From: a virus
Taxonomy: Duplodnaviria; Heunggongvirae; Uroviricota; Caudoviricetes
IMG/VR virus record: IMGVR_UViG_2619619129_000008
Strand: one strand, 5' to 3'
Length of the DNA: 30,900 nucleotides
A program made the translations under genes and the position numbers. A model generated the notes under the pieces. It was not told the DNA's origin and did no database searches. It saw nothing but the letters and a program-made list of their open reading frames with translations. Every line of letters begins with the position of its first letter. Within the stretch, counting starts at the first letter, position 1. Positions 30,240-30,900 of the stretch are shown one piece after another.

Positions 30240-30452
30240 TTGTCCCGTAAAATGACAGGAATTGTCAAAACCTTTGACGGCAAAAGCGGCAAGGGTCTTA
30301 TCACCCCATCCGATGGTCGTATCGATGTCCAGCTTCATGTCTCAGCGCTCAATCTCCGCGATGCAGAAGAAATTACCACCGGATTACGCGTGGAATTTTG
30401 CCGGATAAATGGTCTGCGTGGCCCTTCAGCTGCCAATGTTTACCTTTCATGA
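30240..30452 (+). CDS. cspF: CspA-family cold-shock-like protein (70 aa), apparent TTG start
   Basis: [70 protein letters not shown]; AAGGAA 4 nt upstream of TTG at 30240; in-frame ATG at 30252 is an alternative start. RNP motifs are degenerate. Confidence 0.75.
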
Positions 30453-30457
30453 GCTAT

Positions 30458-30900
30458 GGAAGGTGCGAATAAGCGGGGAAATTCTTCTCGGCTGACTCAG
30501 TCATTTCATTTCTTCATGTTTGAGTCGATTTTTTCTCCCGTAAATGCCTTGAATCAGCCTATTTAGACCGTTTCTTCGCCATTTAAGGCGTTATCCCCAG
30601 TTTTTAGTGAGATCTCTCCCACTGACGTATCATTTGGTCCGCCCGAAACAGGTTGGCCAGCGTGAATAACATCGCCAGTTGGTTATCGTTTTTCAGCAAC
30701 CCCTTGTATCTGGCTTTCACGAAGCCGAACTGTCGCTTGATGATGCGAAATGGGTGCTCCACCTTGGCCCGGATGCTGGCTTTCATGTATTCGATGTTGA
30801 TGGCCGTTTTGTTCTTGCGTGGATGCTGTTTCAAGGTTCTTACCTTGCCGGGGCGCTCGGCGATCAGCCAGTCCACATCCACCTCGGCCAGCTCCTCGCG
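30458..30900 (-). mobile_element. IS5: IS5 insertion sequence (left end and 3' part of the transposase gene; truncated by the window edge)
   Basis: Begins GGAAGGTGCGAATAAGCGGGGAAATTCTTC... as remembered for the IS5 terminal inverted repeat; encodes the C-terminus of the IS5 transposase on the minus strand. Confidence 0.85.
30604..30900 (-). CDS. insH: IS5 transposase (InsH-like), C-terminal ~98 codons; N-terminus lies beyond the window
   Basis: ...[92 protein letters not shown] matches the remembered IS5 transposase C-terminus; the reading frame is open to the window edge. Confidence 0.85.

Follow-up and report, generated by a model that had tools for sequence, protein, structure and literature searches.

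A close described counterpart of the insertion reported here is found in the DLP12 prophage of Escherichia coli K-12, in which an IS5 copy (IS5B, insH2) lies between quuD and essD. According to the account of Rueggeberg (2013) that is cited in PMC7918800, Q-type control of the lysis genes in DLP12 reportedly persists. A second group of counterparts consists of the IS5 insertion at fucAO and the related insertions at glpFK, bgl and flhDC. At fucAO, the operon is driven by transcripts that begin at IRL, where the transposase gene starts, and traverse IS5 completely, and the promoter alone was just 15% stronger than the promoter followed by the entire IS5 (PMC11894529). The third relevant system is the late control region of phage lambda, comprising Q, pR′, the 6S RNA and tR′. 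RNA polymerase loaded with Q blocks hairpin formation and resists terminators, and the processive action of Q extends across tens of thousands of nucleotides (PMC9388147).

The stretch analysed (the window) comprises 30,900 nucleotides of an E. coli prophage of the lambdoid Qin family, whose late genes all lie on the minus strand. Positions 26500-30457 are 100% identical to the annotated module in strain IAI1 and in many other genomes, and the Qin gene order gnsB-ynfN-cspI-rzpQ-rrrQ-ydfR-essQ-ynfU-cspB-cspF was found, with ynfO and ydfO preceding gnsB. Unlike Qin of K-12, the prophage in the window retains a full morphogenesis region. The features located in the window, with the evidence for them, are as follows.

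1335..24750, minus strand: lambda-like morphogenesis set, namely Nu1/terminase, portal, protease, capsid, tail, tape measure, J, tail fibre and assembly protein (ORF lengths; Pfam labels of these genes in the source contig; Pfam matches of the tail fibre and its assembly protein)
27415..28970, minus strand: lysis cassette (ORFs; Pfam Phage_holin_2_1 and DUF1327; annotation of the 100%-identical relatives)
27415-27912, minus strand: rzpQ, spanin
27909-28442, minus strand: rrrQ, endolysin
28439-28750, minus strand: ydfR
28755-28970, minus strand: essQ/essD, holin
Between the holin gene and cspB, plus strand: ynfU
29423..29442, minus strand: strong intrinsic-terminator-like hairpin (8 pairs, 5 of them GC) followed by TTTATTATCT, between cspB and the holin gene (scan)
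29708..30100, minus strand: cspB (coding sequence 29724-29939) with a long cspA-type 5′ leader (ORF list; Rfam RF01766, 158.8 bits)
30240..30452, plus strand: cspF coding sequence, intact, 70 aa (ORF list; Pfam CSD, 5.6e-22; 100% identity with the annotated cspF of IAI1 and others)
30453..30457, no strand: native pentanucleotide GCTAT separating the cspF stop codon from IS5 (comparison with IAI1)
30454-30457, no strand: CTAT, the presumed target-site copy, off the YTAR consensus (flank comparison)
30458..30473, plus strand: 16-bp terminal inverted repeat of IS5, GGAAGGTGCGAATAAG, the IRR end on the transposase C-terminus side (single exact match in the window)
30458..30900, minus strand: IS5, first 443 bp visible (441/443 identity to 1195-bp IS5 copies)
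30490..30502, plus strand: weak hairpin (5 pairs) with a T-rich tail inside the IS5 end (consensus scan; weak evidence)
30604..30900, minus strand: 3′ part of ins5A, the last 98 codons with the stop codon at 30604-30606 (Pfam DDE_Tnp_1, 4.9e-10; called in the source contig as a partial gene of 98 aa)

A sequence-only reading of this DNA had placed an IS5 terminus about 5 bp beyond the cspF stop codon, and this placement agrees with our analysis to the base. The stop codon, TGA, occupies 30450-30452, and the terminal repeat begins 5 bp further on, at 30458. The repeat GGAAGGTGCGAATAAG occurs once in the window (0.04 occurrences are expected by chance with two mismatches allowed), and 30458-30473 is the same end sequence as in full-length IS5 copies of two other genomes (L001 and L004). 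From 30458 to 30900, 441 of the 443 positions are identical to each of two complete IS5 copies (1195 bp) in other E. coli genomes. The visible share amounts to 37% of the element, and both the identity and the C-terminal 98 aa of a DDE transposase (InsH/Ins5A) fit IS5; the repeat pattern GGAAGGTGCGAA(T/C)AAG is expected at both ends of the element, and at the one visible end, 30458-30473, it is exact. The element is thus a canonical IS5, and its transposition is a familiar and already known kind of event. Its transposase gene runs from right to left, in the direction of the prophage late genes, and the next gene after IS5 in the direction of the late transcript is cspB.

IS5 looks cut off in the window because the draft contig stops inside the repeat. 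Base 30900 is the final base of the source contig, JNQP01000008.1 (GCA_000704045.1): over its last 20,397 bases the window is identical to the terminal part of this 167,488-bp contig (L129, 147092-167488). The apparent truncation is therefore a break of the draft assembly in a repeat and has no biological meaning, and claims about the other end of IS5 need other contigs or long reads. The visible part of the element differs from the two reference copies at a few positions: 30525 is T where both references have C, and 30764 and 30788 each differ from one of the two. Such private differences may explain how the assembler was able to reach 443 bp into the repeat. Elsewhere in the window, the portal protein carries two private substitutions. 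A look-up with this protein led to the source contig; one with the terminase, a common protein, gave IS-free places only.

The sequence-only reading had proposed a comparison with an IS-free prophage. Similarity to IS-free relatives runs exactly to position 30457, after which IS5 begins, and in IAI1 the native empty site reads catgaGCTAT|ATTAAAGC. A near-isogenic IS-free prophage (L127, GCA_052517825.1) is 99.96% identical over window positions 12305-30457, with six substitutions and one indel in 18,153 bases, and in this prophage cspF is followed by ynfS, quuQ, ydfU, rem, hokD and relBE. In both prophages the site is empty, with ynfS and then quuQ beyond cspF. The arrangement is widespread, as the module from cspI to cspF is present in 1596 complete E. 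coli genomes and a contiguous stretch from cspF to quuQ in 1462 of those. In IAI1 (L002), the native region beyond cspF carries the following features.

11953: end of cspF
11958/11959: equivalent of the insertion point
12008-12097, plus strand: ynfS
12246-12269: 10-bp GC-rich hairpin
12344-12315, minus strand: promoter-like site TTTGCA-18-TAAAAT
12375-13127, minus strand: quuQ (ydfT)

The near-isogenic prophage is without one base that is found at window position 26544, inside ynfN; this gene was called in the source contig and left uncalled in the relative, and it is probably frameshifted there and intact in the window.

The late genes are all on the minus strand and the late control region must therefore lie to the right of cspF. 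Several observations in the IS-free relatives point to a lambda-like control region at that place. The QuuQ protein (IAI1 ydfT) matches Pfam PF03589 at 3.6e-54, and the same family, which is that of lambda Q (PMC9388147), is listed for the Q gene of the near-isogenic prophage. Aligned with lambda Q, QuuQ shows 33% identity (E 1e-40). When the DNA after quuQ was aligned with the DNA after lambda Q, the −10 hexamers TAAAAT and TAAATT lined up, and the 11 bases TCAACGATGGG that follow the −10 hexamer in IAI1 are identical in lambda pR′ and stand at equal spacing. We take AACGAT to be the sigma-dependent pause element of lambda pR′. These elements lie on the minus strand within IAI1 12344-12240, where a strong hairpin comes about 40 nt after the TCAACGATGGG stretch: RNA from the predicted IAI1 start (about 12308) folds at −31.9 kcal/mol with a z score of −4.4, a value that no shuffled sequence equals, and is U-rich directly after the hairpin. 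These features fit a predicted pR′ just past quuQ in the IS-free relatives, followed about 70 nt on by a predicted tR′.

In its Q-lambda-family gene, its lambda-like −10 hexamer, the identical TCAACGATGGG stretch and its hairpin terminator, the predicted control region of the relatives, no part of which falls within the window, resembles that of lambda, but it differs in two respects. The distance from the start of the leader to the hairpin is about 70 nt in the Qin relatives compared with 194 nt in lambda, which suggests that the predicted Qin late leader is far shorter than the lambda 6S RNA. In addition, the Qin relatives have about 1.8 kb of DNA, containing cspF, cspB and ynfU, ahead of the holin gene.

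The sequence-only reading had also suggested that IS5 may separate late-gene control from the lysis and morphogenesis genes and may thereby cripple induction. As to position, the comparison with relatives lends the claim good support: ynfS, the pR′-like site and quuQ would lie beyond cspF, while the lysis and morphogenesis genes lie on its other side, on the minus strand. The functional part of the claim fared less well, as set out below.

Our data are best explained by a recent, strain-specific transposition of a canonical IS5 into the accessory-gene interval between the Q gene and the holin gene of a Qin-family prophage, with little effect on the late genes, and we consider this reading likely. 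The native flank is unbroken up to the base that adjoins the inverted repeat at 30458. Were the insertion a simple one, the far end of IS5 would read ...CTTGTTCGCACCTTCC CTAT ATTAAAGCTTTAATTTCAGG, followed by ynfS and quuQ, the native DNA past the far end would be CTAT-ATTAAAGCTTTAATTTC with quuQ beyond it, and the right junction would be CTTGTTCGCACCTTCC-CTAT-ATTAAAGC. Judging by the near-identical IS-free prophages, late transcripts would then reach IS5 about 350 nt after the predicted pR′ start and about 280 nt past the tR′-like hairpin. The element would stand upstream of ynfS, with 50 bp between the insertion site and that small gene, and the start codon of the holin gene would follow 1487 nt (1.49 kb) downstream of the element. 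The site would thus fall inside the Q-dependent late transcription unit, with no coding sequence interrupted.

Placed beside the known systems, a simple insertion at this site has a close parallel in DLP12, where IS5 likewise occupies the interval from the Q gene to the holin gene, again a stretch of accessory genes. The two cases differ in that the DLP12 copy interrupts nmpC whereas the window copy hits no coding sequence, and in that the DLP12 copy is oriented against late transcription whereas the window copy is co-oriented with it. The Q proteins also appear to differ, since by analogy with a DLP12-like Q gene (L128 2879-3262, Pfam PF06530) the DLP12 Q would be of the Q21 family, in contrast to the lambda-family Q of the window relatives. 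The window thus adds one more private IS5 insertion in the accessory stretch between the Q and holin genes of a lambdoid prophage, an arrangement that DLP12 of K-12 already exhibits. With the fucAO type of insertion the window copy shares the direction of reading, in which transcripts enter at IRL, cross ins5A and exit at IRR into the downstream genes (PMC11894529). The insertions of that type are, however, selected activating mutations upstream of silent operons, whereas the window copy shows no sign of selection and the promoter upstream of it would be the predicted phage late promoter.

The alternative that survives best is that the junction marks the breakpoint of a rearrangement, produced either by recombination between two IS5 copies (a deletion or an inversion) or by an IS5-mediated adjacent deletion, in which case the DNA on the far side would be something other than ynfS, pR′ and quuQ, and the lysis and morphogenesis genes, physically severed from the promoter on which Q acts, would be silent. 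That the contig stops inside IS5 is compatible with such an event, but a contig end in a repeat is also normal behaviour of short-read assemblies. The flank CTAT departs from the YTAR consensus of the IS5 target, which was reported for 220 reconstructed duplications (PMC5009759). To judge its weight, 108 different sequences flanking this end of IS5 were collected from GTDB representative genomes, a sample in which IS5-rich Aeromonas dominate. YTAR was fitted by 87 of the 108 flanks (81%) and CTAT was found in two, one of which, in Yersinia (L007), had CTAT on both sides as a perfect duplication. CTAT is thus a rare but real target of IS5, and the idea that a CTAT flank marks a junction made by something other than transposition is weakened. 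Among the 53 surveyed copies with both ends visible, 27 had matching 4-bp flanks; the remaining half or so, with unmatched flanks, suggest that rearranged copies are common and would favour a rearrangement, although the weight of this figure is reduced by the dominance of Aeromonas in the survey. Likewise on the side of a rearrangement, about 8% of the genomes that have the lysis and csp module are without a contiguous stretch from cspF to quuQ. Against it stand the native flank, which reaches the base beside the inverted repeat as in a clean transposition, and the perfect 4-bp duplications (TTAA, TTAG or CTAA) at all seven of the distinct IS5-family insertions that were read at cspB/cspF and at the paralogous cspG/cspH. 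On balance we judge a rearrangement to be unlikely.

A second alternative accepts the simple insertion and supposes that it is polar, so that late transcription is halted or much reduced at IS5, short of the genes for holin, endolysin and structural proteins, with neither lysis nor particles as the outcome. The position between the predicted pR′/tR′ and the late genes would allow this. IS insertions are classically polar, and some 1.2 kb of extra and possibly poorly translated RNA could let Rho act. Polarity suppression by Q is, for its part, reportedly a classical theme, treated by Forbes and Herskowitz in 1982. In the present case the element lies in the sense orientation, and the inserted RNA would therefore be a sense message with a translatable gene, ins5A. 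A scan of full-length IS5 gave no terminator-like site on the ins5A-sense strand. The strong native hairpin at 29423-29442, between cspB and the holin gene, implies that late transcription is already antiterminated in order to reach the lysis genes, and terminator-like hairpins of the native leader (the tR′-like one and 29442-29423) would thus already be overcome by Q. Even ordinary polymerase, reading in this direction, keeps about 85% of its output after crossing the complete element (PMC11894529), and complexes loaded with Q are processive and block hairpins (PMC9388147). We regard a strongly polar insertion as quite improbable.

For the same reasons, namely the co-orientation of IS5 with late transcription, the lack of a terminator-like site on that strand in the scan, the known read-through of the element and the resistance of Q-loaded polymerase, the proposal that the insertion cripples induction is unlikely to hold. 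The DLP12 precedent in K-12 speaks against crippling as well, although the IS5 copy there is oppositely oriented. After a simple insertion, the late leader would most likely become longer by about 1.2 kb, with little effect on the genes for lysis and morphogenesis. Position and orientation together mean that this insertion should not be scored as prophage-inactivating. A further consequence would follow if IS5 lies inside the Q-dependent late transcript and in the same direction: prophage induction might flood the cell with ins5A-sense RNA, and a viable prophage would also package IS5, which could bring about a burst of transposition and phage-borne spread of the element. We hold this to be improbable. 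If true, it would amount to IS5 transposition coupled to induction, and it needs quuQ and pR′ beyond the element as well as an inducible prophage.

The IAI1 relative keeps the integrase, excisionase and exonuclease genes, dicB, dicA/dicC and ydaT; it also contains three pseudogenes plus a fragment of ISEsa1 between the replication-side genes and flxA. Prophages of this family may not be inducible, which limits how far IS5 could be blamed for any crippling. Independent decay of the same control region is seen in other strains: in Z226-5 (L137 5509-6261), the annotation marks quuQ (ydfT) as a pseudogene interrupted by an internal stop codon, and in strain 81 (H101) an IS1 lies between cspF and ydfT.

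The same insertion was sought in other genomes. With a query restricted to the junction, the exact left junction was found in none of 5426 complete E. coli genomes, and patterns for the left and the predicted right junctions had no match in GTDB representative genomes, JGI metagenomes or IMG/VR viral contigs. As the junction is absent from all the collections searched, the insertion is taken to be recent and private to the strain or lineage. The weakest alternative, that reads of IS5 were misjoined to the cspF contig and that the site carries no insertion at all, could draw on this absence and on the location of the junction at the extreme end of a draft contig, but it is extremely improbable given that the switch from native DNA to IS5 occurs exactly at the first base of the inverted repeat, which a false join in shared sequence would not produce, that cspF and IS5 have no sequence in common, and that 443 bp of IS5 continue unbroken.

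Although this particular junction is private, IS5-family elements have struck the surroundings repeatedly. About 45 of the 5426 complete E. coli genomes carry an IS5-family insertion around cspB/cspF of Qin or around the paralogous chromosomal pair cspG/cspH. The sites lie in cspB, in the gap between cspB and cspF, in the gap between ynfU and cspB, and around cspG/cspH, and both orientations occur; such IS5/ISKpn26 insertions include L001, L003, L004, L131, L132 and L134-L137. They resemble the window copy in that AT-rich divergent pairs of cold-shock genes were struck by elements of 1195-1196 bp with clean 4-bp duplications, but none of them lies at the cspF stop codon and none has CTAT. The best hits of the whole query, in the Res13 strains, ES4 and 1008S13, were considered as instances of the same event and rejected, as IS5/ISKpn26 lies between cspB and cspF or inside cspB in these genomes. 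An apparent orientation bias, in which 8/8 of the IS5-family insertions at csp loci pointed the same way, was rejected as artefactual, since the search combines matches only if they are on one strand; a query with the IS5 part flipped returned seven to nine genomes with the opposite orientation, for example Z226-5, in which IS5 lies between ynfU and cspB. The divergent pairs cspB/cspF and cspG/cspH are thus recurrent landing sites of IS5-family elements, which helps in the interpretation of contig breaks and variation at these loci.

As well as its bearing on the late genes, the insertion has local consequences for cspF and ynfS. The coding sequence of cspF and the region upstream of it are untouched by IS5. 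The suggestion that the native 3′ end of cspF had been removed proved correct in that the 3′ region is displaced by IS5. In the relatives, ynfS follows cspF after 55 bp on the same strand with no terminator between them, and the first strong hairpin comes 294 nt downstream. By comparison with these relatives, cspF would lose its native 3′ untranslated region and its linkage to ynfS and to the first strong terminator, ynfS may lose read-through transcription from cspF, and transcripts reading through from cspF would enter the 3′ end of ins5A in the antisense direction. Within the window, the weak hairpin at 30490-30502 is the only terminator-like site for such read-through. At other loci IS5 is known to affect promoters in its vicinity; nothing indicates such an effect at this site.

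Several further observations concern the remainder of the prophage. An Rfam scan of the window gave no match to the RF01766 leader at cspF, and located a cspA-type thermoregulator leader of this family (112.8 bits) for cspI at 26812-27197 on the minus strand. The IS009 RNA (RF02111, 224.7 bits) was matched over its full length at 1378-1576 on the minus strand, where it overlaps the tail fibre assembly gene (1335-1919). Beyond that gene, the left edge of the prophage carries a 222-aa ORF resembling class I methyltransferases (612-1280, plus strand) and a 116-aa ORF with no Pfam match (116-466, plus strand). In Qin of K-12 the corresponding place is held by pinQ and ydfK, and the two ORFs of the window may represent a different cargo.
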